Shown piece by piece: positions 1,397 to 15,426 of a stretch of DNA of 20,000 nucleotides. The notes beneath the pieces are model-generated. The model saw only the letters and a program-made list of their open reading frames with translations. It was not told where the DNA came from and made no database searches. The stretch lies in the IMG/VR virus record IMGVR_UViG_3300050821_001955; one strand, given 5' to 3'. The stretch's first letter is position 1. Each line of letters starts with the position of its first letter. A program made the translations under genes and the position numbers. The DNA is from an uncultured virus (IMG/VR IMGVR_UViG_3300050821_001955). Lineage: Duplodnaviria; Heunggongvirae; Uroviricota; Caudoviricetes.

Positions 1397-4300
1397 GCGA
1401 ATGCCGCTAATCCCGTTACGTGGATATTCGTTCCATCCGGACTATACCAGCTTAAAGTATCTACTGCATTAGCAGCCGTAGACGTTACAAACTTAGTTCC
1501 TCCTGCGAATAGATAGTGACTACTCCAAGTTATTACCGGAGGAGTGCCAGAAGCCGGTTGAGTAATAGTTATAAATCCACTAGCCCCGGCTACTAAGTTA
1601 GTCGGATTAGATAGGGTATAGTTTTGAGCTTGAGTAGGAGCTAGAGTAACGTTCCATCCGGAAGCCATATTCCAAGATACAGTAGTTCCAGGGGTAAGGG
1701 CTTGTACCGTAGTAGAGAGTAGAGTACCTCCCCAAGAGGGAAGAGTAACAGAAGTATTAGCGGTTACGGTAAGAGTTGTAGTAAACGCTCCTGAAAACGT
1801 AACGCTACCTCCTATTGTTATTGTAGAAGCTCCGTTATTAACTCCCGTACCCCCGTAAGTAGCTCCTACTACCGTTCCTTGCCAGACCCCAGTTCCAATA
1901 GTCCCTATAGAGGTAAGACTACTAAGGGTAGCTACAGCACTATTAACTAATGTTCCAGAAGTAGGGAGAGTAACGTTAGTGGACGCAGTTGTAGTTAAGG
2001 TGAGAGCGAAATTACCGGAAGTCGTAAAGGTATTTGCTAGTGAAAGGTTATTAGCGGTTATATTACCCGCAAACGTAGCTAGTTTTGTACTATCTATCGT
2101 TAGAGCCGTAGCGAGAGCATTAACCGATGATCCGGTAGTTCCCGCTGGAGCTACTTGTACTATAAATGAGCCACCTATTCCCGTTCCAGTACCTTGCGAA
2201 CACTTAAATGTAAAGTTAGCTCCCGCAGCATTAGACGTAGCAGTTACTACACTCTGACAAGATATATTCTGGGCTACTGGTGCCGCAGCATCTACATTAC
2301 CTAGTTGAAAAGTAGCTGCCGCTTTACGAGTTAGCATCGTATCAAAAGTAGCCGCAAGATTACCAGCCGTCCAACCAAAAACGGCAGAACTCCACATCCG
2401 TATAGACCCATCAGAACTTACTACTTCAAACGCATTATTTCCTAGAACCGTAATGCCCGTGGAAGTTAATGCCGTACAAGACATCGTTCCAGTTATAACT
2501 AATCCGGCTGTTCCATAGGTACAATTCGCCGGAAGCATCGGATGATTATCCCAAACTCCCGCAGCCGATCCAATATTCGTTACAATAACTAATCCATAGC
2601 CGCCAGCGGGAACAGTACAAACCGCCCCGGACGCATTATCTACAACCGTCAACGCTCCCGTACTGTTATTATTAAACTCGAAAGTCTGATAGAGAGAGAG
2701 GGTAGTAGCGTCCGGAAGCTTAAACGTCTGTGTATTAGTCCCCGTTAATAACTGTACTCTTGTAGAGGCTACCGTAAGAGTTGTAGTACCCGCAGCGGAC
2801 GTTACAGAAGTACATGCACTAATAGCATTATTAAAAGCGGAGTTACCGTTGCTATCCCGATAGGCTACAGTACTAGCAGTAGCAGCAGCCGTTAGAGAAA
2901 TAGCCGTAGCATTAGCAAGACTTCCCGTAGAATTACCTACTACACTATTAGCCGCTACCTGCTGAAACTTAGCGTAAGTCACCGCGTTAGCCGCTATCGT
3001 TGTAGCAAAGGAACCTGTTCCCGTTCCAGTAACGTCATTAGTCAAAGTTATCGTTTGATCCCCGGTATTACTCCCGGATACACTAGCACTAGCCCCTATC
3101 GTGAGAGTATTAGATCCGTTATTTACTCCAGTCCCTCCGTAAGTAGCTCCTATTAGAGTACCGTGCCACGTTCCGGACGTAATCGTACCTATCGTTGCTA
3201 TATCTGTTCCTACTAGCTTAGAAGCTGCTATAGATCCTGATAGCATCGCGTTAGTAACTGCTCCGGCTGCGATAGTCGTAGCAAAGCTTCCCGTACCGCT
3301 TCCGGTTACGTTGCCTGTTAGCGTTATCGTCTGGTCCCCCGTATTACTTCCCGAAACGCTAGCGGAAGCTCCGATAGTTAAAGTGTTTGATCCGTTGTTA
3401 ACTCCCGTTCCCCCATAAGTAGGTCCAATAACCGAAGCATTCCAAGTTCCCGTTACTAGAGTACCTACCGCTGTTACTTGAGTCTGACTAGCTAATACGC
3501 TGAATGTACTTCCGGAGAGTCCTAGCCCAGTCCCGTTTACATAGGTTCCCGGTCCAGCCACTTGAGTAAACGAGATAGCCGTAGTTCCTACCGTTATCGA
3601 TCCGCCGGTTATCATCGTCCAAGTTGTACCGGCTAAAGTTGATCCGCTAGTAACGAATACCGTATCTCCCGCAGCTATCTCCGCTGTAGAGTTAAAGTCT
3701 GTACTACGAGTTAGTACATAAACCGTTCCGGACGTACCTACTATTGTTACTGTAAAGATACCATTATTAGCGGCAGTAGCTTCGTGATCTACTAAAATCC
3801 TATCCCCAACGCTAGGAGTTGATCCGTCTATCGTAAGGATTCCATTGACTACTCCAGTTAGAGTAGCTCCTACACCGCTAGATCCGTTATTGTAAATATT
3901 AGTAGGAAGGGCAGCTGTTGTTGAGTATTTACAAGCAGTCTTAGTAGTAGAGTTAGCTAGGAGAGTATTGATAGCCGTAGTAACATAAGCAGTAGAAGCA
4001 GCGAGCGTACTATTATCAGAAGTTGCCTGGGTCCCTACTATCGGATTAGTAAGAGTAGCTCCGGAAGCTAAGACAATATTACCGCTGCCCGTTGTACTTG
4101 TACTAAGATCCGTAACGGCTAATTGACCTACTGTAACTGCTCCTCCCGAGCTAGTCTGTTTAAGAACTTGAGACGTACCTCCCGTAGCACTAAGATCGGA
4201 GTTAGTCCCTCCGTAAGCTAATCCAACTTTAGTTCCCTGCCAAGTTCCGGTTCCTATAGTTCCTACCGTCGTTAAAGAGGACGTTACTACATTAGAAGCG

Positions 4301-6449: not shown

Positions 6450-7115
6450 CTATCTAGGTCCGTGAATAGTGTGCCATCGGTCGTGTTCGTAAACCATTTG
6501 AGAGTAACTCATTCCACTAGTATTTATTCCATGAGAGCTTTCAAGATGTCTCTTAAGACTACTAGGAGTATTATCAGGCCAAGTATATCTAGGTACAGGC
6601 AATCTTGCGTTAGCTTGAGATAGGCTCTGACTATCTCTTGTCTGTACGATCTGTTTTGGCTTAGCTTCTTTCGGTAGTAGGCTCTTCTCAGTAGCTTCAT
6701 ATTTGTTAAGGAAGTAGTCTACTCCTAGCCAACCTTCTTCTTTCCTCCAATCCCCTTTAGAGTCTTGCCAAAGTAGGAAAGGAGTTCCCGTAGCTTCTTT
6801 CGGTAGATCGGTTCTAAAGACTACATTGAACTTATCTTTGATCCTAGGGTCTTGACAATCCTTATACCCTTTTATACAGTTCTTACAACTACCGTGTCCT
6901 GCGGCTAGTTGTTTCTCTGTTTCTTTCGAGTAGAACCTTATACAAGGCTTTTTCGGAAGTAGCGGAGGAGCTACGTGTTTCTGATCTTCAATATGCTCGA
7001 AATGAGGTAGCTCTCCTTTTTCTATCTTGTACTCATAAATCGTTTCGGGTAGCGGAGACACCTGTACTTTGAACTCTATGTCTCCTACAAATAGAGCTAG
7101 TAATAAAAGGTACAT
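6450..7115 (-). CDS. Thioredoxin/glutaredoxin-like CxxC protein with His-rich C-terminal motif (221 aa)
   Basis: Beta strand CIRFYS, then C77-K-N-C80, then GTP112FLLWQ...GW (cis-Pro strand pattern). C-terminal RYTWP...LKRHLESSHG...EHDRWH. Short hydrophobic N-terminus; TAATG-coupled to the protease gene. Confidence 0.65.
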   Translation of the reverse strand: MYLLLLALFVGDIEFKVQVSPLPETIYEYKIEKGELPHFEHIEDQKHVAPPLLPKKPCIRFYSKETEKQLAAGHGSCKNCIKGYKDCQDPRIKDKFNVVFRTDLPKEATGTPFLLWQDSKGDWRKEEGWLGVDYFLNKYEATEKSLLPKEAKPKQIVQTRDSQSLSQANARLPVPRYTWPDNTPSSLKRHLESSHGINTSGMSYSQMVYEHDRWHTIHGPR

Positions 7116-7900
7116 TAAGCAGCTACCGTAGAGAGAGGACAGACAGCGTCGTCAGCTAGTATTTTTGTACCCTGCAAGACACTAAAGCCTTGAGATCCAA
7201 ATCCATCGCCCCAGCTATTTCTGAACCGAATCGCGATAGCTCCGTTAAGCCAAACCGCATCGCAAAATACTACTTCGTGACCCCACCAATTAAGTCCTAC
7301 CGCTACGGGGATGTTTCGGAGCAGACAAGAGATCATCTGGTTAGTATTCTTAGGTACTAGCTCATACCAACCTACGATCCGATAATCAAGGGCAGCTTGA
7401 ACGTTAGCCGGAGTATGGTACTTACTACTAATCGCGTTAACAGGCCAAAGAGATTCCGGAACAATACCGTTATCAACGATATACTTAAGAGCAGCTTCCC
7501 CCCAACCTCCTACGTTCTTATAGCCGGTAATCGGTCCCCCTACGCTAGCTGCCGAGAGCTTAACCATAGGCTCATTTTGTATAACCCTAAGCATCTCTAC
7601 TGTACCCGTCGGAGCATTACACCAACAGTAGTTAGTTTGTTGCTGGTTCTTACTAGGAAGATTAGCTTGAAGAACTAAGTCCGAGATACGATTTTTAAGT
7701 TGTTCTTTTTCGGCTATCCTAGCTTGCCATTCCGATTGAGGAATAAGTAGTTCATCGGGAAACGGAGTAGTAGTAGCCATCCGTCCGTAAGGGGTAGTCC
7801 TAGCTCCCGCCATATACCCAGTACTCATCCCATCCGGAGTAACGATACTAGGAGTATCATCGTCAATAACAATTTCGTTATCGAATAATTCGCTAGTCAT
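7115..7900 (-). CDS. Papain-like cysteine peptidase (clan CA, family C1-like; 261 aa)
   Basis: KNQ86QQTNYC92W matches papain KNQGSCGSCW (oxyanion Gln, catalytic Cys 6 residues later). Also KLS motif, GH208EV catalytic His, RN228SWGxxFGxxG catalytic Asn motif. No signal peptide. Confidence 0.9.
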   Translation of the reverse strand: MTSELFDNEIVIDDDTPSIVTPDGMSTGYMAGARTTPYGRMATTTPFPDELLIPQSEWQARIAEKEQLKNRISDLVLQANLPSKNQQQTNYCWCNAPTGTVEMLRVIQNEPMVKLSAASVGGPITGYKNVGGWGEAALKYIVDNGIVPESLWPVNAISSKYHTPANVQAALDYRIVGWYELVPKNTNQMISCLLRNIPVAVGLNWWGHEVVFCDAVWLNGAIAIRFRNSWGDGFGSQGFSVLQGTKILADDAVCPLSTVAA

Positions 7901-9278: not shown

Positions 9279-9611
9279 CTACGGAGTAACTACCGGAGTC
9301 ACGTGCCTATGGTGATGGTGCTTAACGTGAGTATGAACTCGACCAAAAATCCCTACGTGAGTGCTCTCTCGGTGATTAACGCTCTCATAACCTACTGCTC
9401 CGTAGCTACTAGGAGCACCACAATCGGCTACTCCCGCGTAGCCTCCGTAACTACGTCCGTAAACCCCCCTAGAAGACCCGTAGGAGCGATAGGACCGGGA
9501 ATAGGATCTTCCTACCCCGTTAGGACAGACGCCTCCGGGGCAGCCCGCTAGAGCGGTTTCCGAGAGGATAAGAGAAACGAGTAAAAGACTAGCCACAATC
9601 AACGTTTTCAT
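9279..9611 (-). CDS. Small secreted protein with CPGGVCP motif and His-rich tail (110 aa)
   Basis: Sec-type signal peptide ending ALA, mature N-terminus GCPGGVCP, Ser/Tyr/Gly/Arg low-complexity middle, HTHVKHHHHRH near the C-terminus; AAGGA SD. Confidence 0.75.
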   Translation of the reverse strand: MKTLIVASLLLVSLILSETALAGCPGGVCPNGVGRSYSRSYRSYGSSRGVYGRSYGGYAGVADCGAPSSYGAVGYESVNHRESTHVGIFGRVHTHVKHHHHRHVTPVVTP

Positions 9612-10203: not shown

Positions 10204-10419
10204 CTAGTCTTTGAAACGTAAAACGGGAACACCGGCAAAGTTTAGCAACATACCTATCAATACCAGCACTATCAAAACTTTAAGGACTATGTTAATCCAG
10301 TTCTTATAAGGTTCCGGAATAGGAACGATAGAGATCAGATAGAACAAGAGTCCTACTATACATCCGAATACAAGTAGAGTAACTATCAACGTAACTAGAC
10401 CGCCAATTGTAAGTACCAT
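10204..10419 (-). CDS. Two-TM small membrane protein (Thivi_2564-like), candidate holin or antiholin (71 aa)
   Basis: Two long hydrophobic helices joined by an IVPIPEPYKNWINI loop, resembling the Thivi_2564 family pattern. Confidence 0.7.
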   Translation of the reverse strand: MVLTIGGLVTLIVTLLVFGCIVGLLFYLISIVPIPEPYKNWINIVLKVLIVLVLIGMLLNFAGVPVLRFKD

Positions 10420-10431
10420 GATGTTTCTCTT

Positions 10432-11046
10432 CTAGTGGTGCGGTTTCTTAGGTTTGTGACTATCCGGTTTTGGTTTATGTTCTTCTTCCGCTACAACCGG
10501 AGTTACTTCCGGAGGAGGATCATTATGAGTGTCTACAGTAGTCTCGGTATGAGTAGTTACCGTAGTAGGATTAGGACTAGGAGCAGGATTTACTATAACA
10601 GCTGGAGGAGCGGGAGTTTGTACTATTGTAGTCGTTGTATCTACCGGCTTGGGATCGGGAGCGAACTTAGGAATCATATCACTCCAACCTCCCCAAATCG
10701 GAATACCACAAGCTTTGAGATTAGTAGAGATGCTAAGGAGTTCAAATCCTGAATAGAACATAGAGATACCTTTAGTCACCGGGAAATCGGGAACCATAGT
10801 TTCTACTACTGCCCCCGCTCCTATTGCTAAGAGAGTTCCGATTTTTCGATTCGTAGCTTTAAATATATCATGCATACAGACCGTGTCCGTAGATACAGCA
10901 GCACAATAGCGAGTAATAATGTCTATAACCATTAGTACAAGTAGTCCTAAGACTATAGGTACATATTGTATATAGTGAAATACTACTTGAAGCTCCGGAG
11001 AGACAGCGGGGTGTTCAGCTAGGAGAAACATCTGTATCCCTTTCAA
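10432..11046 (-). CDS. Phage holin, Phage_holin_4_1-like, with a Pro/Thr-rich C-terminal extension (204 aa; true start may be MFLLAEH)
   Basis: LLVLMVIDIIT...A...RKIGTLLAIGAG...FY..FELLSISTNL...GIPI parallels the family pattern D-x-I-T-G / K-K / FYxxxExxSIxEN / GxPxP. Confidence 0.75.
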   Translation of the reverse strand: MKGIQMFLLAEHPAVSPELQVVFHYIQYVPIVLGLLVLMVIDIITRYCAAVSTDTVCMHDIFKATNRKIGTLLAIGAGAVVETMVPDFPVTKGISMFYSGFELLSISTNLKACGIPIWGGWSDMIPKFAPDPKPVDTTTTIVQTPAPPAVIVNPAPSPNPTTVTTHTETTVDTHNDPPPEVTPVVAEEEHKPKPDSHKPKKPHH

Positions 11047-11467
11047 TGGTAGGCTCTTTCGCTATCTCTACAGCAGCGGTTATTACTGACCCATGAGTGA
11101 GATTATTTGGAATCCCTATGTCTTTCATTAGATGATCTCCAAATTCTTTATCAAGTATTACAAATATTTCGTTATCGGAGAGACTAGAACAGTTCTCTTC
11201 ATAGAACTTCCTTAAGTCTCCTATGTAGTTTCTAAAAAATACTCTAGTTGCTTCATTGAGAATGAACGGGCTGTTTATGTTACCTAGTCCTTTAGCTACC
11301 GCTTCACTATGAGCCCCTCTAATCAAATAGTCCCAAAGAGCATCTACCCGTTTCTCAATCTGATCAAACCTACCCATGATATAATAATAGGGGACGCCTA
11401 TCCCTACTCCAAAAAGTAAGAGAATAGCTATAACGGAACAAGCTATTACGGTAGAGCTAAGAGTCAT
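11015..11467 (-). CDS. Single-pass membrane protein (150 aa)
   Basis: N-terminal TM helix, short coiled coil (RFDQIEKRVDALW), globular C-terminus; ATGA-coupled to the upstream gene. Confidence 0.7.
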   Translation of the reverse strand: MTLSSTVIACSVIAILLLFGVGIGVPYYYIMGRFDQIEKRVDALWDYLIRGAHSEAVAKGLGNINSPFILNEATRVFFRNYIGDLRKFYEENCSSLSDNEIFVILDKEFGDHLMKDIGIPNNLTHGSVITAAVEIAKEPTIERDTDVSPS

Positions 11468-11907
11468 GCTGTATCATCGTTTTGAGAAGTTCTTTCAGGA
11501 TGTTTCCTTAACTCTTGCTCTTGCTTGGCTAAAGCTCTGCTTTGGTCTCTAGCTTCCTTAGATTTCTCTAGAGCTTCTAATCGTAGCTGAGTCTTAGTCT
11601 TAAACTCGGCTGTATCTGTCTTGAAAGCTTTATAAGAGTCCCAATGTCTAGTGTATTCTTGCTTAGCCGTAGAATCGTTCTCTATACACTCCTTTATATT
11701 CTGTAAGCAAGAGTCTATCCTAGTCTCAATCTTAGTGATATGCTTAATCTTAGCTAAGTCCGTAAAGAACAGAACTAATCCTCCTGCCGCTAGTAGCAAA
11801 CTAACCGCAATTCCTACTATCGTAAGTGTGCCTATCGCGGTAAGGATATGAGTTAAAGTCTCATTATTCTCTACCATAGTACCTATCGATCCTTTAACTA
11901 AGTTCAT
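11464..11907 (-). CDS. Membrane protein with C-terminal coiled coil (147 aa; alternative start at 11877), holin- or spanin-like architecture
   Basis: Long hydrophobic segment (ILTAIG...LVLFF) followed by a charged heptad-like region. Confidence 0.7.
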   Translation of the reverse strand: MNLVKGSIGTMVENNETLTHILTAIGTLTIVGIAVSLLLAAGGLVLFFTDLAKIKHITKIETRIDSCLQNIKECIENDSTAKQEYTRHWDSYKAFKTDTAEFKTKTQLRLEALEKSKEARDQSRALAKQEQELRKHPERTSQNDDTA

Positions 11908-12277
11908 GTATAGACGCCATTACATATAAAGCCCCAGAAGCATAAAAAGGCCAAAGAGCTACTAAGACTCGAATCTCAGTACTATCGCTACGTCGTCCCT
12001 TAACTTCTCGACCTAAGTTCATAGACTTGCTAAGAGGATTTCTAATGAATTCATCTCTTAGTCTTACATGGTCTTCTACTACGGGAAGAGGGAGAACCGA
12101 TTCAATTTTCTTACCTATCAATCCGCCCATAATAGTTTTAAACATACCCTCAGCTTGAGAGTTAGCTACTACAATAGTTCCTTTGTCGTCTATGACTATC
12201 TTACCAGAACTTTCCCAAGCGATGTCTTTACAATCATTGAGAGATAAAACTACTCCAAAGCTAATAGCGTTTGTCAT
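11894..12277 (-). CDS. Standalone PAS-domain protein, FixL-like (127 aa)
   Basis: IVIDDKGTIVVANSQAEGMF...LIGKKIESVLP...H70...LGR90EVKGRRSDSTEI.V.V.L is a complete PAS/PAC signature; no output domain. Confidence 0.9.
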   Translation of the reverse strand: MTNAISFGVVLSLNDCKDIAWESSGKIVIDDKGTIVVANSQAEGMFKTIMGGLIGKKIESVLPLPVVEDHVRLRDEFIRNPLSKSMNLGREVKGRRSDSTEIRVLVALWPFYASGALYVMASIHELS

Positions 12278-12669
12278 GGATGAATACTTTCAGTCTTAGA
12301 GAGAGCATTTACTGCTTGGCTCAGAGTTTGAAGAGCTACTCTAAGACTTTGCATCTCCGATTGCATTCCTTGAAGATTCCTATCTCCGTCTCTACTTGCT
12401 CGTTCTAATATTGAATTGAGAGCTTTAGAGAATTCTGCGTGCTGTTCTTTTCTCTCCTCCGTACAAGCTTTATGAAGCTCTTTATTATGTTCGGCTTGAC
12501 TCTTAATCAATCCATCAAACTGTTTGTCTTTATCGGGAAGATGTTTTAGAAGTAACCAACCTAACACTAGTCCTAGTAAACCCGCTCCGGCCCATCCTGC
12601 TCCTCCGGAGATAAGATTAGCATCTGTAACCGGAGTATTACTAGCTTGAGCTAAGATAAAAAGGTTCAT
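12274..12669 (-). CDS. Single-TM plus coiled-coil membrane protein (131 aa), holin- or lysis-accessory-like
   Basis: GWAGAGLLGLVLGWLLL TM helix followed by a long coiled coil; ATGA-coupled to the PAS gene. Confidence 0.7.
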   Translation of the reverse strand: MNLFILAQASNTPVTDANLISGGAGWAGAGLLGLVLGWLLLKHLPDKDKQFDGLIKSQAEHNKELHKACTEERKEQHAEFSKALNSILERASRDGDRNLQGMQSEMQSLRVALQTLSQAVNALSKTESIHP

Positions 12670-12672
12670 TAG

Positions 12673-13041
12673 TTATTTCAGACGAGTAAAAGCACTAGCT
12701 CTTAAATTACCCGTGTCGACTGGCACGAGTAGTTGACTCTCTCTTTGTAATCTTAGTCCCGCCAGTAGTAGAGCATTGGCTAGAGTCATTTTATTATTGA
12801 ATACTAAGTCTCTTACCATCTCGACTATCTCTGGTCTCAACTGTCTAACTGGAGTCTCAAGAAATTTAGCTTGTCCTCCATTAGGGTGATTAGCTTCTAA
12901 GTTCTCGTGAACATAAACTGCATATGCGGCTGTATAGCCTACGATTACTTGAGGATTAGTCTTAGTAGCTCCGGAACCGAAAGCACTCTTAGAGAGTCCC
13001 CTAAACGCTCGTTGAATTCCGTCTATTCCGGTAACTTTCAT
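12673..13041 (-). CDS. HK97 gp10-like neck / tail-completion protein (122 aa)
   Basis: Hallmark motifs VPVDTGNLRAS, VGYTAAYAVYVHE and QAKFLE; position after head-joining genes. Confidence 0.85.
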   Translation of the reverse strand: MKVTGIDGIQRAFRGLSKSAFGSGATKTNPQVIVGYTAAYAVYVHENLEANHPNGGQAKFLETPVRQLRPEIVEMVRDLVFNNKMTLANALLLAGLRLQRESQLLVPVDTGNLRASAFTRLK

Positions 13042-13863: not shown

Positions 13864-14343
13864 TTATTGAGGAGCACTCCGAAGAATCTTAATGATCTCT
13901 TCCTTAGTCTTAGCCTTACCCAAAGGAATCTCTTCCGCTTGGGCATGAGCTTGAAGCTGAGGAATAGTCATATCATCGAAAGGATCATTAGCACTAGGAT
14001 TGAGGTTAGCCGTATTACCGATCTCAAATCCTGATTTAGCGGCTAGAGCTACGGGAGAGAGCTTATCGCTAGGATTAACGTTGAAAATCTCTTCAAACTT
14101 AATCGAACCGGGATAGTTGAACTTTTTACAAAGGTCAGCGGTATCCGGAACTAGATCGCCACCCCATTGATCGTCCTCAATACCATCGGGAGGACGTTTG
14201 ACTCCGTAAATAATAGGCCGGTGAGTAGGTTCCCCATCTTCGTTTACAACGCACTTACCTCCGTGGAATCCTGCGAGAATCCGGAAGTAGCGAATGGGCT
14301 TAACTTTCTTTTGAATAACGGGAGTGGTTTCAACGCTAGACAT
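13864..14343 (-). CDS. Protein with C-terminal Rho_N/HeH-like helix-extension-helix domain (159 aa)
   Basis: FDDMTIPQLQAHAQAEEIPLGKAKTKEEIIKIL fits the Rho_N/HeH pattern often found just after phage capsid genes; AAGGAG SD. Confidence 0.75.
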   Translation of the reverse strand: MSSVETTPVIQKKVKPIRYFRILAGFHGGKCVVNEDGEPTHRPIIYGVKRPPDGIEDDQWGGDLVPDTADLCKKFNYPGSIKFEEIFNVNPSDKLSPVALAAKSGFEIGNTANLNPSANDPFDDMTIPQLQAHAQAEEIPLGKAKTKEEIIKILRSAPQ

Positions 14344-14669: not shown

Positions 14670-15392
14670 TTAAGCTGCTTCGTTTTGTTTAATCTTATCG
14701 GCTTCTCTTTGGCGTCTAGTATTCCAGATTCTCTCGGCTATTTCCGCTGCATCCGGTCGTTTACTCCAATGATTTGTTTTAGCACTTTCTTTTAGCTTCT
14801 CCGCCATGTTCCTAATCTTCTCTTCTGTTTCTTCTCCTCCCCGTTTAGTCCAATGCGCATCACTAATCTTTTTCTTAGTAGCGTCATCCATTTTACGCCC
14901 GGTTTGGAACTTTCTTACAGCTTCGTTAACATGTAAAGGACGTTTCTTTCCTTTATTAGCTATCGCTGCTGCTATAGTAGCTTTCACGCGGTTTAAGTTT
15001 CCCTTTTGACTAATACGCATCTTAGCTCTAGATTCCTCAGTATGTTTAACTCCTAACATATTTTGAGTAACACTCCGAGCTATGTTATATCCTAAAGTTC
15101 TGTCATAGGGAGTAAAGTGGTCTATCCAAAATTGTTCCCTAGGTAAGCAGTCTTCCTTATTTTTGCACGTCTCTAATATATACCAATCAAAATACTTAGC
15201 TCCGTATTTATTCCAAGCATTTTGCAAGTATCTATTAACATGCTTCCCGCTTTCCAACGCCTTTTTATGACCGTTCCATCGATCCTTAAAACTAGTAGCA
15301 GTGCTTCCTATATACATTTTACCATTTACAGTATTTAGTATCTGGTAAACTCCTATCTTGTTTTTCAAACGACTTATATTAGCTTTTGGCAT
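14670..15392 (-). CDS. Free-standing GIY-YIG homing endonuclease with NUMOD3-like repeats
   Basis: GVYQI..NGKMYIGS, catalytic-type R (KDRW), E (REQFWID) and N (GYNI); basic repeats GVKHTEESRAKM and GRKMDDATKKKIS. The AGGGAG SD (15399-15404) favours ATG 15392 over 15398. Confidence 0.92.
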   Translation of the reverse strand: MPKANISRLKNKIGVYQILNTVNGKMYIGSTATSFKDRWNGHKKALESGKHVNRYLQNAWNKYGAKYFDWYILETCKNKEDCLPREQFWIDHFTPYDRTLGYNIARSVTQNMLGVKHTEESRAKMRISQKGNLNRVKATIAAAIANKGKKRPLHVNEAVRKFQTGRKMDDATKKKISDAHWTKRGGEETEEKIRNMAEKLKESAKTNHWSKRPDAAEIAERIWNTRRQREADKIKQNEAA

Positions 15393-15426
15393 TATCATCT
15401 CCCTTAGAATGATACCCTAGAAAAGT

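Follow-up and report, generated by a model that had tools for sequence, protein, structure and literature searches.

What is a lone sensory domain doing among the lysis genes of a tailed phage? The question is raised by a 20,000-nucleotide stretch of an uncultured soil virus (IMG/VR record IMGVR_UViG_3300050821_001955, Caudoviricetes; "the window" below means this whole stretch), a tailed-phage structural region with all its genes on the minus strand, one of which, at 11894..12277, encodes a PAS protein. A preliminary description of the DNA had read this protein as a FixL-like sensor that might regulate lysis. Two parts of that reading stood, as the protein belongs to the heme-PAS class by homology and its lysis-gene context recurs in unrelated viral contigs. 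The gene is absent from the related loci that we fetched. We argue that the window protein is a single-domain PAS of the FixL/DosP/FG214 class, an assignment well supported by homology, and that it probably binds heme. More tentatively, it may be a cytoplasmic heme-b-class sensor that was captured by a tailed phage, heads its lysis cassette and tunes lysis to oxygen or redox state, a proposal to which we give somewhat less than an even chance. The gene and the residues on which the argument turns are as follows:

11894..12277, minus strand: stand-alone PAS gene, an open reading frame (ORF) of 127 amino acids, assigned to the FixL/DosP/FG214 class and lacking both an output domain and any hydrophobic segment
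12230..12232, minus strand: codon of C16, part of the N-terminal motif CKD[VI]AW[ED]S that sets the three closest stand-alone proteins apart
12068..12070, minus strand: codon of H70, candidate proximal heme ligand in the F-alpha helix
12020..12022, minus strand: codon of M86, candidate distal ligand
12008..12010, minus strand: codon of R90, candidate distal O2-stabilizing arginine at the start of G-beta

The minus-strand ORF translates into 127 amino acids with one PAS domain, as had been described, and both heme-ligand candidates named at the time are encoded where they had been placed: H70 by CAT (12070-12068) within LPLPVVEDH and R90 by CGA (12010-12008) within LGREVKGRR. No transmembrane (TM) segment was predicted in the protein, which is without a kinase, GGDEF/EAL or helix-turn-helix (HTH) domain, the ORF being bounded by overlapping neighbor genes. 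On the upstream side, the reported ATGA overlap is present, with the PAS start codon (ATG, 12277-12275) lying over the TGA of ORF 12274..12669. On the downstream side, a start of ORF 11464..11907 at its first ATG would give it 14 nt in common with the PAS gene, the alternative being an internal ATG at 11877 with AAAGGA in front of it. The sequencing runs listed for the window (two DNA, no RNA) were uninformative on expression, and a promoter and terminator scan of the window, which found fewer sites than in shuffled sequence, was uninformative as well.

An exhaustive HMMER search returned 10,974 proteins at E ≤ 1e-3, almost without exception sensors with several PAS domains, and at the level of homology this puts the PAS assignment beyond doubt. 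The matches were mostly long sensors with two to four tandem copies of the same PAS subtype at ~30-38% identity, the best domain identity to non-phage relatives being 38.5%, and the subtype is marked by the motif LVP..R..H...R..[FY]...P..R.MG.GR.L.G.RKDG. Among NCBIfam models, the generic sensory_box came first, followed by the heme-PAS regions of FixL and DosP. Compared as a single sequence with PDB chains, the protein gave marginal matches, the best being FG214 of Fimbriimonas ginsengisoli (E 0.0049); 10 of the 14 chains listed were FG214, FixL or EcDOS and the other four were unrelated. A profile of three proteins, built from the window PAS and its homologues P0009 and P0123, gave a clearer picture: its top 14 matches (E 1.2e-6 to 2.8e-4) were all EcDOS/DosP, FG214 or FixL, and beyond these heme-b PAS no other PAS chain in PDB matched at E ≤ 1.

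The structure comparison proposed in the preliminary description pointed to the same class. An AlphaFold2 (AF2) model from a 40-row alignment had a mean predicted local distance difference test (pLDDT) of 83.3 and a predicted template modeling score (pTM) of 0.76, its only weak parts being residues 1-8 and the FG-loop block 81-90 (pLDDT 60). The model and its Foldseek matches agree on a PAS fold with a five-stranded sheet and flanking helices. Foldseek returned 412 PDB matches at E ≤ 0.001, of which ranks 1-32 were all FixL, EcDOS/DosP or FG214 (template modeling, or TM, scores 0.69-0.82), the first non-heme PAS appearing at rank 33; the nearest folds are thus those of heme PAS domains only. 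FixL of Bradyrhizobium and Sinorhizobium (PDB 1drm, 1d06, 1xj4) superposed with TM scores of 0.72-0.78 and root-mean-square deviations (rmsd) of 1.8-2.5 Å over 102-116 columns, but the window PAS is only 21-24% identical to it, has no kinase or other output domain and lies in a phage lysis cassette. EcDOS/DosP (PDB 1s66, 1v9y, 1vb6, 9cmf) was the best profile match (E 1.2e-6; TM score 0.80, rmsd 1.7 Å), yet the distal Met of EcDOS aligns with L88 of the window protein and not with M86, and DosP has PAS, GGDEF and EAL output domains whereas the window protein has none. FG214 (PDB 10jx), the closest match of the single sequence, has in common with it the pattern H-x3-R ... P-x2-[RK]-x-M and differs in having an HTH DNA-binding domain.

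The candidate heme ligands fall where the class would have them. H70 lies within model helix 64-79 and aligns in ungapped alignments with the proximal His of RmFixL, BjFixL, EcDOS and FG214, while R90 pairs with an Arg in both BjFixL (within IGRIVTGKR) and EcDOS (within MSRELQ), and M86 with the Met in the FG214 segment RRTMGEH. The claim of a FixL-like context and a 20-residue spacing therefore held, as H70 and R90 match the proximal His and distal Arg of FixL without gaps. These residues are H200 and R220 in BjFixL, and the EcDOS residues concerned are H77, M95 and R97. Counting along the ungapped alignment, BjFixL R206, H214 and I215 correspond to E76, K84 and S85 of the window protein, and L236 and I238 to the hydrophobic positions V106 and L108. 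Among 420 aligned family domains from the 150 best HMMER matches, position 70 was His in 400 and position 90 was Arg in 244 (and Leu in 109), and the His/Arg pattern is thus a feature of the family rather than a product of chance. The position of R74 was Arg in 324 domains, position 84 was Arg or Lys in 377, position 86 was Met in 349, and the complete His-Met-Arg triple was found in 199.

Published work places these residues in a wider frame. Our FixL/DosP-type heme-b PAS corresponds to cluster 3 of Xing et al. 2023 (10.1101/2023.04.23.537977), who put FixL and DosP into one large PAS cluster; according to that paper, >9,700 of its sequences (60%) keep the F-alpha His, and these are predicted to bind heme. 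For FG214, a preprint (10.64898/2026.03.15.711900) gives a heme b with His156 as the proximal and Met172/His175 as the distal ligands, Met172 being an alternative. His156 and Met172 align with H70 and M86 of the window protein, whereas the distal His175 corresponds to G89.

Conservation among single-domain relatives was uneven across the pocket. We compared six stand-alone homologues, namely the window protein, P0009, P0123 and the PAS proteins of three further viral contigs (L080, L083 and L117, described below), which are 24-59% identical overall. The preliminary description had staked its reading in part on conservation of H70 and R90 in phage homologues: the proximal His proved invariant (6/6), while R90 was kept in only 3/6. 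Met at position 86 was found in 5/6. In L080, L083 and L117, respectively, the position of R90 is Met, Gly and Met and that of M86 is Val, Met and Met. In the window protein, R90 and M86 are both present, and together with H70 and R74 they are invariant in its three-member clade.

Such variation of the distal residues is what one might see if the protein bound no heme at all and served as a cofactor-less or non-heme PAS adaptor, a structural subunit of a coiled-coil membrane complex (for lysis, spanin control or superinfection exclusion) in which the His has a structural role. Many PAS domains with the same pattern have no demonstrated heme, and some members of the FixL/DosP cluster use another cofactor, as stated by Xing et al. 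2023 (10.1101/2023.04.23.537977). The recurrent adjacency to genes for TM and coiled-coil proteins that we report below would also fit a complex. The proximal His speaks against an adaptor, being retained by all six stand-alone proteins despite their low identity and by 400/420 family domains, and so does the fact that every significant solved relative binds heme. The FG loop, moreover, is the only low-confidence part of the model core, as expected if a cofactor orders it. We thus regard an adaptor without heme as unlikely, and predict, from homology and the placement of H70, that the window protein probably binds heme.

If the protein is a sensor, its neighbors suggest what it might act on. 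The genes around it are the following:

12673..13041, minus strand: neck or tail-completion-like gene (weak PHROG 5 match), at the upstream edge of the cassette
12274..12669, minus strand: 131 amino acids, one TM segment (residues 23-41) followed by a long helical C-terminal portion that is predicted to lie in the cytoplasm; stop codon overlapping the start of PAS
11464..11907, minus strand: 147 amino acids, one TM segment (residues 30-48) and a heptad coiled coil, the soluble part predicted cytoplasmic; directly downstream of the PAS gene
11015..11467, minus strand: 150 amino acids, an N-terminal TM segment (residues 7-25) and a soluble part of 125 amino acids; no Pfam or PHROG family
10432..11046, minus strand: holin of 204 amino acids with a Pro/Thr/Lys-rich C-terminal tail (Pfam Phage_holin_4_1, E 3.6e-12)
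10204..10419, minus strand: small two-TM protein of 71 amino acids, resembling a class II holin or antiholin in size and shape

From the PAS gene to the holin, the cassette genes are co-oriented and overlap or abut. The holin had been reported three genes downstream of the PAS gene, and the ORF at that place on the same strand is indeed one: its Phage_holin_4_1 match beats the curated cut-off, and further matches are to the holin family PHROG 199 (2.1e-6) and, below the cut-off of that model, to NCBIfam holin_tox_secr (4e-6). The two-TM protein 10204..10419 had no Pfam or PHROG family match, and a holin or antiholin role is suggested by its architecture only. No Pfam or PHROG family was found for 11464..11907, which was flagged as a TM plus coiled-coil (TM+CC) protein by the heuristic described below. 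Its counterpart upstream of the PAS gene, 12274..12669, was not flagged by the strict heptad test; its look-alikes in the Atlas (0.92-0.93) belong to viral hypothetical clusters, and its shape is that of an anchor with a long helix. We considered the two proteins as paralogues and rejected the idea (BLASTP E 1.4). Co-folding of the PAS protein with the soluble parts of 12274..12669, 11464..11907 and 11015..11467 gave a score of 0.00, which counts neither way.

A survey of PAS-only genes next to phage holins had been suggested as a check, and we surveyed viral contigs blind to context. The conserved KDGxEFPV(E) was back-translated and IMG/VR was scanned with it; the ORFs of the 56 loci matching the DNA pattern were screened with the 420-domain profile, and one extra homology scan was made with the L080 PAS. 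This gave four distinct PAS-bearing viral contigs, L080 (= L125), L083 (= L089), L117 and L081 (= L079), the remaining pattern-matched loci being chance matches with no PAS; L083 was also recovered by homology to the L080 PAS. They add three more stand-alone heme-type PAS genes and one gene for a receiver-PAS (REC-PAS) fusion:

L080, 68.8 kb, GC 69%: PAS of 133 amino acids (Pfam PAS E 1.6e-13); upstream, two N-terminal-TM genes and a small helical gene; downstream, a gene for 78 amino acids with a coiled coil and a C-terminal TM segment (4-nt overlap with PAS), then an HTH gene; 1.8 kb downstream of PAS, an endolysin (Peptidase_M15_4 7e-11, PHROG 17001 4.9e-35) overlapped by a small TM gene
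L117, 119.5 kb, complete with terminal repeats, GC 37%: before PAS, a TM+CC gene, a 3-TM gene and a gene for an 85-amino-acid tail-anchored coiled-coil protein that overlaps the PAS ORF; after PAS, a TM+CC gene of 99 amino acids (weak Rz-like match, E 0.0015) and genes for one TM and one 4-TM protein; 2.5 kb downstream of PAS, Phage_lysozyme (E 1.8e-37)
L083, 73.1 kb, complete, GC 51%: PAS of 156 amino acids with a glycine-rich tail-fiber-like gene in front; after PAS, an overlapping TM+CC gene of 148 amino acids, a lipoprotein (LAAC), a secreted protein and another TM-helical protein
L081, 37.1 kb, GC 31%: 3311..4258, plus strand, REC-PAS fusion of 315 amino acids (Response_reg 7.5e-11, PAS_9 7.6e-9); 3 nt downstream, a membrane protein of 176 amino acids with an N-terminal coiled coil (weak Rz-like match, E 0.0048); on the other side, divergent, a lipoprotein, a protein of 181 amino acids and a holin (PHROG 36209 E 9.4e-9) 1.2 kb away

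The PAS gene adjoins a gene for a membrane-anchored coiled-coil protein in all four contigs, and an endolysin or holin lies within 2.5 kb of it in three (L080, L117 and L081). The arrangement seen in the window is thus repeated in viral contigs that were found by the PAS motif alone, and at the level of gene order the idea of a lysis regulator gains comparative support. An antiholin would be sought in the lysis cassette, and there the window PAS gene lies, co-oriented with the holin as the third gene downstream; the placement is analogous in L080, L117 and L081. In L083, the PAS region stands at the end of the late operon, just ahead of the strand switch to the replication genes. These unrelated contigs span 31-69% in GC and 37 to 120 kb in genome size, and L080, L083 and L117 are without the DUF6260 capsid family of the window phage, which L007, the closest relative of the latter, does have. 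Compared with PDB, the PAS proteins of L080, L083 and L117 matched heme PAS in 14/15, 9/9 and 8/8 cases, respectively. The PAS of L081 is not of the heme type, as the F-alpha His is missing and the F-G region is shorter; with its REC-PAS, L081 adds another, non-heme kind to the PAS proteins encoded near lysis genes.

We then asked how unusual the neighbors are, using a crude, home-made classifier that calls a protein TM+CC if it has exactly one hydrophobic 19-mer with a Kyte-Doolittle mean ≥1.6 and a separate 28-residue heptad window and is ≤200 amino acids long. It flagged 17 of the 1,607 ORF-derived genes in all loci examined, the focal genes included. In each of the four loci with a stand-alone PAS gene (window, L080, L083 and L117), at least one immediate co-oriented neighbor was flagged, and the flagged genes made up 5/8 of all immediate neighbors. 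The positive-inside rule placed the soluble part in the cytoplasm for both neighbors in the window, for L083 5330 and L117 4865, and for the tail-anchored L080 4093 and L117 4326, whereas L117 3611 showed the opposite, spanin-like topology. Given their weak Rz-like matches, a spanin reading may apply to L117 3611-3910 and L081 4261-4791. For the TM+CC genes of the window, we did not adopt a reading as a spanin pair, the lipobox protein 9279..9611 being 1.9-2.7 kb away and the coiled coils predicted to be cytoplasmic. In a cellular control, a scan with the L083 PAS gave 80 genome loci with 79 PAS ORFs of a median 543 amino acids; only 2/79 were ≤200 amino acids long and neither had a TM+CC neighbor. 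Cellular PAS domains of the heme-type subtype are almost always part of a long multidomain protein.

That cellular background invites an explanation in which the phage protein works on the host, forming mixed dimers with its multi-PAS kinases or cyclic-di-GMP enzymes and so blunting the oxygen or redox response, while the lysis cassette is merely where accessory genes are tolerated. The nearest non-phage relatives are indeed the tandem PAS repeats of long sensors, PAS domains of the class function as dimers (FixL and FG214 are so described in the FG214 study, 10.64898/2026.03.15.711900), and the PAS gene is accessory and patchy in a neck-to-tail region that is variable. Such a decoy leaves unexplained why the PAS genes of all four other viral contigs adjoin membrane-anchored coiled-coil genes, often with overlapping stop and start codons, and why the gene is placed in a late operon. 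Expression that late would leave little time for host transcription to be rewired. The motif CKD[VI]AW[ED]S, absent from the cellular domains, also argues against simple mimicry. We consider the host-directed decoy quite unlikely, and a functional tie between the PAS protein and the membrane proteins of the cassette to be somewhat favored.

The window protein itself has few close relatives. The protein collections hold only two close homologues, P0009 (136 amino acids, 62% identical) and P0123 (130 amino acids, 44% identical), both singleton clusters on short contigs of 2,785 and 1,451 bp, and a search of the viral, metagenome and genome collections did not recover their loci. When the window protein or the clade alignment was used to scan viral and metagenome contigs, the sole matches apart from short chance ones were to a contig of 6,318 bp that is identical to the window (L001 = L005). 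Among 50,697 GenBank phage records, no DNA or protein matched the window PAS, and none matched the PAS of L080 or L117. All three clade proteins start with MT[ND][AS], are 127-136 amino acids long and 44-59% identical, with 46 invariant columns, and have CKD[VI]AW[ED]S in common. C16 in that motif is invariant in the three-protein alignment, where 411/420 cellular domains have a gap, and the region forms a low-confidence helix (residues 13-20) in the AF2 model. Outside the PAS clade, we fetched relatives of the window phage through the neck gene 12673..13041 (68 viral loci, 35 of which hold ≥3.5 kb downstream of the neck gene) and through the capsid gene (4 genome loci). Head and neck genes are common to these relatives at 40-68% identity, and downstream of the neck gene nothing is, except the holin in L007. 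Between its neck gene and a weak match to a tail terminator, L007 carries an insert with TM, lipoprotein and holin genes (Phage_holin_4_1 E 1.3e-23) and no PAS. As the relatives lack PAS and past the neck gene only the holin of L007 is shared, the PAS gene is an accessory one, within a variable, lysis-related insert.

An accessory gene could also be a mere passenger with no role in lysis: a piece of a host sensor gene, acquired not long ago, that has survived by chance because it lies in a cassette prone to recombination. Its absence from all the related loci fits this, as do the existence of just three known clade members, each a singleton cluster, and the GC of the cassette (~10,800 to 12,800), which at 39-40% is somewhat below that of the capsid genes. 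A chance fragment would hardly keep its start, its length and 46 invariant columns across a clade, which implies constraint as a stand-alone unit; the context is repeated in independent phages; and the translational coupling to both neighbors implies co-expression. We therefore rate the passenger as distinctly improbable.

How, then, might a PAS domain with no output act on lysis? In the mechanism that we propose, the PAS protein would bind host-made heme b via H70, with M86 and/or R90 acting on the distal side. When O2, NO or CO bound, or when the iron changed its redox state, the shape or dimer state of the PAS would be altered, as in FixL and FG214, and the altered PAS would change its contact with the cytoplasmic coiled-coil part of a flanking membrane protein, or with the holin. 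The holin would then be triggered earlier or later, and lysis timing would follow the oxygen or redox state of the host. Single PAS proteins of ~125-150 amino acids that bind a cofactor and signal through a partner or dimer, with no output domain, have precedents in photoactive yellow protein and the short LOV proteins; these use p-coumaric acid and flavin mononucleotide, respectively, fall into other PAS clusters and come from cells rather than viruses. In FG214, ligand or redox state switches a monomer-dimer equilibrium, according to its description (10.64898/2026.03.15.711900), and by analogy such switching is a plausible signaling route for a PAS with no output domain.

Small regulators linked to the lysis cassette are familiar in phages. 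T4 RI and RIII, lambda S107 and P1 LydB delay holin triggering by protein contact, and T4 RIII is a soluble cytoplasmic antiholin. To our knowledge, no antiholin is a PAS protein or binds a cofactor. The window PAS protein had no PHROG family at E ≤ 0.01 and no homology to antiholins or lysis regulators. Lysis timing is usually ascribed to the holin clock, with antiholins and, in T4, the superinfection signal as modifiers. Heme-PAS sensors as such are well known, and so is a phage-encoded PAS sensor, VqmA_Phage of vibriophage VP882, which ties a life-cycle decision to a small molecule; it differs, according to its description (PMC8284805), in being a PAS-HTH protein that binds the autoinducer DPO, acts in transcription at the lysogeny-to-lysis switch and is encoded outside the lysis cassette. 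The window PAS has no HTH fusion and showed no sequence relation to VqmA_Phage, the GenBank phage collection holding no match to it. In BFVD, 16 viral PAS-fold proteins matched at E ≤ 1e-3, including short "PAS domain" proteins of uncultured Caudovirales. A search of full-text literature, with most subscription journals outside it, found no PAS in a phage lysis cassette and no heme or oxygen sensor acting on a holin.

Several of our observations weigh against a heme-based sensor of lysis timing. At the level of the protein, the Pfam match was below threshold (PAS_9, 21.4 bits against a cut-off of 27), and the replacements of R206 by E76 and of I215 by S85 make the pocket similar but not identical to that of BjFixL. 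The loss of R90 from three other viral stand-alone PAS proteins implies that O2-specific sensing is not a family trait. At the level of the phage, the close clade comprises only 3 sequences among ~15 billion proteins, and neither the three-sequence nor the 420-domain profile found a PAS gene in any of the 72 related loci, which makes the gene dispensable for the group of the window phage. At the level of context, no holin or endolysin was recognized near the PAS gene of L083. The neighbor proteins have no detectable sequence similarity across loci except in two pairs, L083 5330 and L117 2291 (25% over 106 amino acids, E 2.5e-6) and, weakly, L080 4093 and L117 4326 (E 0.006). Given the weak Rz-like matches (0.0015 and 0.0048), some of the TM+CC neighbors could just be i-spanins, whose coiled coils would lie in the periplasm, where a PAS in the cytoplasm could not contact them. 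Adjacency to coiled-coil membrane genes and location in a lysis cassette are not independent facts, as lysis cassettes are rich in membrane proteins, and the survey draws on five contigs with genes called by ORF length. With these points counted in, true ligand-gated control of lysis timing seems doubtful to us, and so does the broader proposition that unrelated tailed phages independently acquired a hitherto unrecognized sensory module of heme-PAS and membrane coiled coil that reads host oxygen, NO or redox state and holds back or triggers the holin, while for the window phage we keep to the tentative view given at the outset.

If the broader proposition is true, an environmental sensor with a cofactor, and not the holin clock alone, would for the first time be found to set lysis timing, in effect as a ligand-gated antiholin system, and timing would gain a new type of input. 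A phage so equipped could delay or hasten bursting according to host respiration, which is plausible in soils with fluctuating oxygen, with implications for how burst size is modeled and for the turnover of carbon by viruses in oxic-anoxic habitats. Compact, output-free heme-PAS switches with natural membrane partners would also be of use to synthetic biology. The conservative part by itself describes a well-defined new clade of heme-type PAS, single-domain in viruses, whose cellular relatives are almost always long sensors.

The loci contain further features of interest. In the window holin, the Phage_holin_4_1 domain covers residues 30-117 and is followed by a tail of ~85 residues ending in KPKKPHH; the holin of L007 is likewise 204 amino acids long with a similar extension. 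The lipobox protein 9279..9611 (minus strand) has LAGC, a Gly/Ser/Tyr/Arg-rich middle, the motif CPGG[VI]CP and a His run, HTHVKHHHHRH, and may be an envelope protein that binds metal, or else a lipoprotein of the o-spanin kind. Near the holin of L007, a small secreted protein (12284..12541, plus strand) has CPGG[VI]CP and HRRHTHH, in the order reversed relative to that of the window. No classical endolysin was recognized anywhere in the window, and the papain-family protein downstream of the holin block (7115..7900, minus strand, 261 amino acids; Peptidase_C1 E 7e-9, which beats the cut-off) could accordingly be the lytic enzyme or a tail-associated peptidase.

The L083 5330..5776 (plus strand) and L117 2291..2674 (minus strand) proteins belong to a family with an LHSPHT motif, an N-terminal TM segment and a helical stretch, which has 72 homologues of 83-184 amino acids (P0151-P0222), many on contigs of 58-76 kb, and no Pfam or PHROG family. 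The gene lies directly downstream of PAS in L083 and three genes downstream of it in L117, and a genome scan with the family profile gave no match. The window protein 11015..11467 seemed by eye to have R-x3-IE-x-[KR]...W in common with this family and was tried as a member; BLASTP found nothing and hhalign gave 0.3% and 0.5%, and the candidate was dropped.

Among the relatives reached through the capsid gene, L074-L077 are contigs of 65-74 kb with capsid genes 53-59% identical to that of the window, binned in metagenome-assembled genomes of four phyla (Opitutaceae, Dehalococcoidia, Peribacteria and Planctomycetaceae). As these are most likely mis-binned phage genomes, we inferred no host for the window phage. 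The window also encodes a DUF6260/PHROG 771 capsid protein, a head decoration protein, neck proteins and a tail protein of 1,204 amino acids. In the 159-amino-acid protein 13864..14343 (minus strand), the C-terminal ~45 residues match the C-terminal end of PHROG 3281 (endonuclease VII, E 4.7e-6) and the remainder is without a match; it looks like a small shared helical module and not like a nuclease. Between the capsid and head-tail genes lies a GIY-YIG/NUMOD3 homing endonuclease (14670..15398, minus strand; Pfam 1.1e-11, PHROG 314 1.5e-33), which is probably a mobile insertion because a homologue is found in only 2 related loci.

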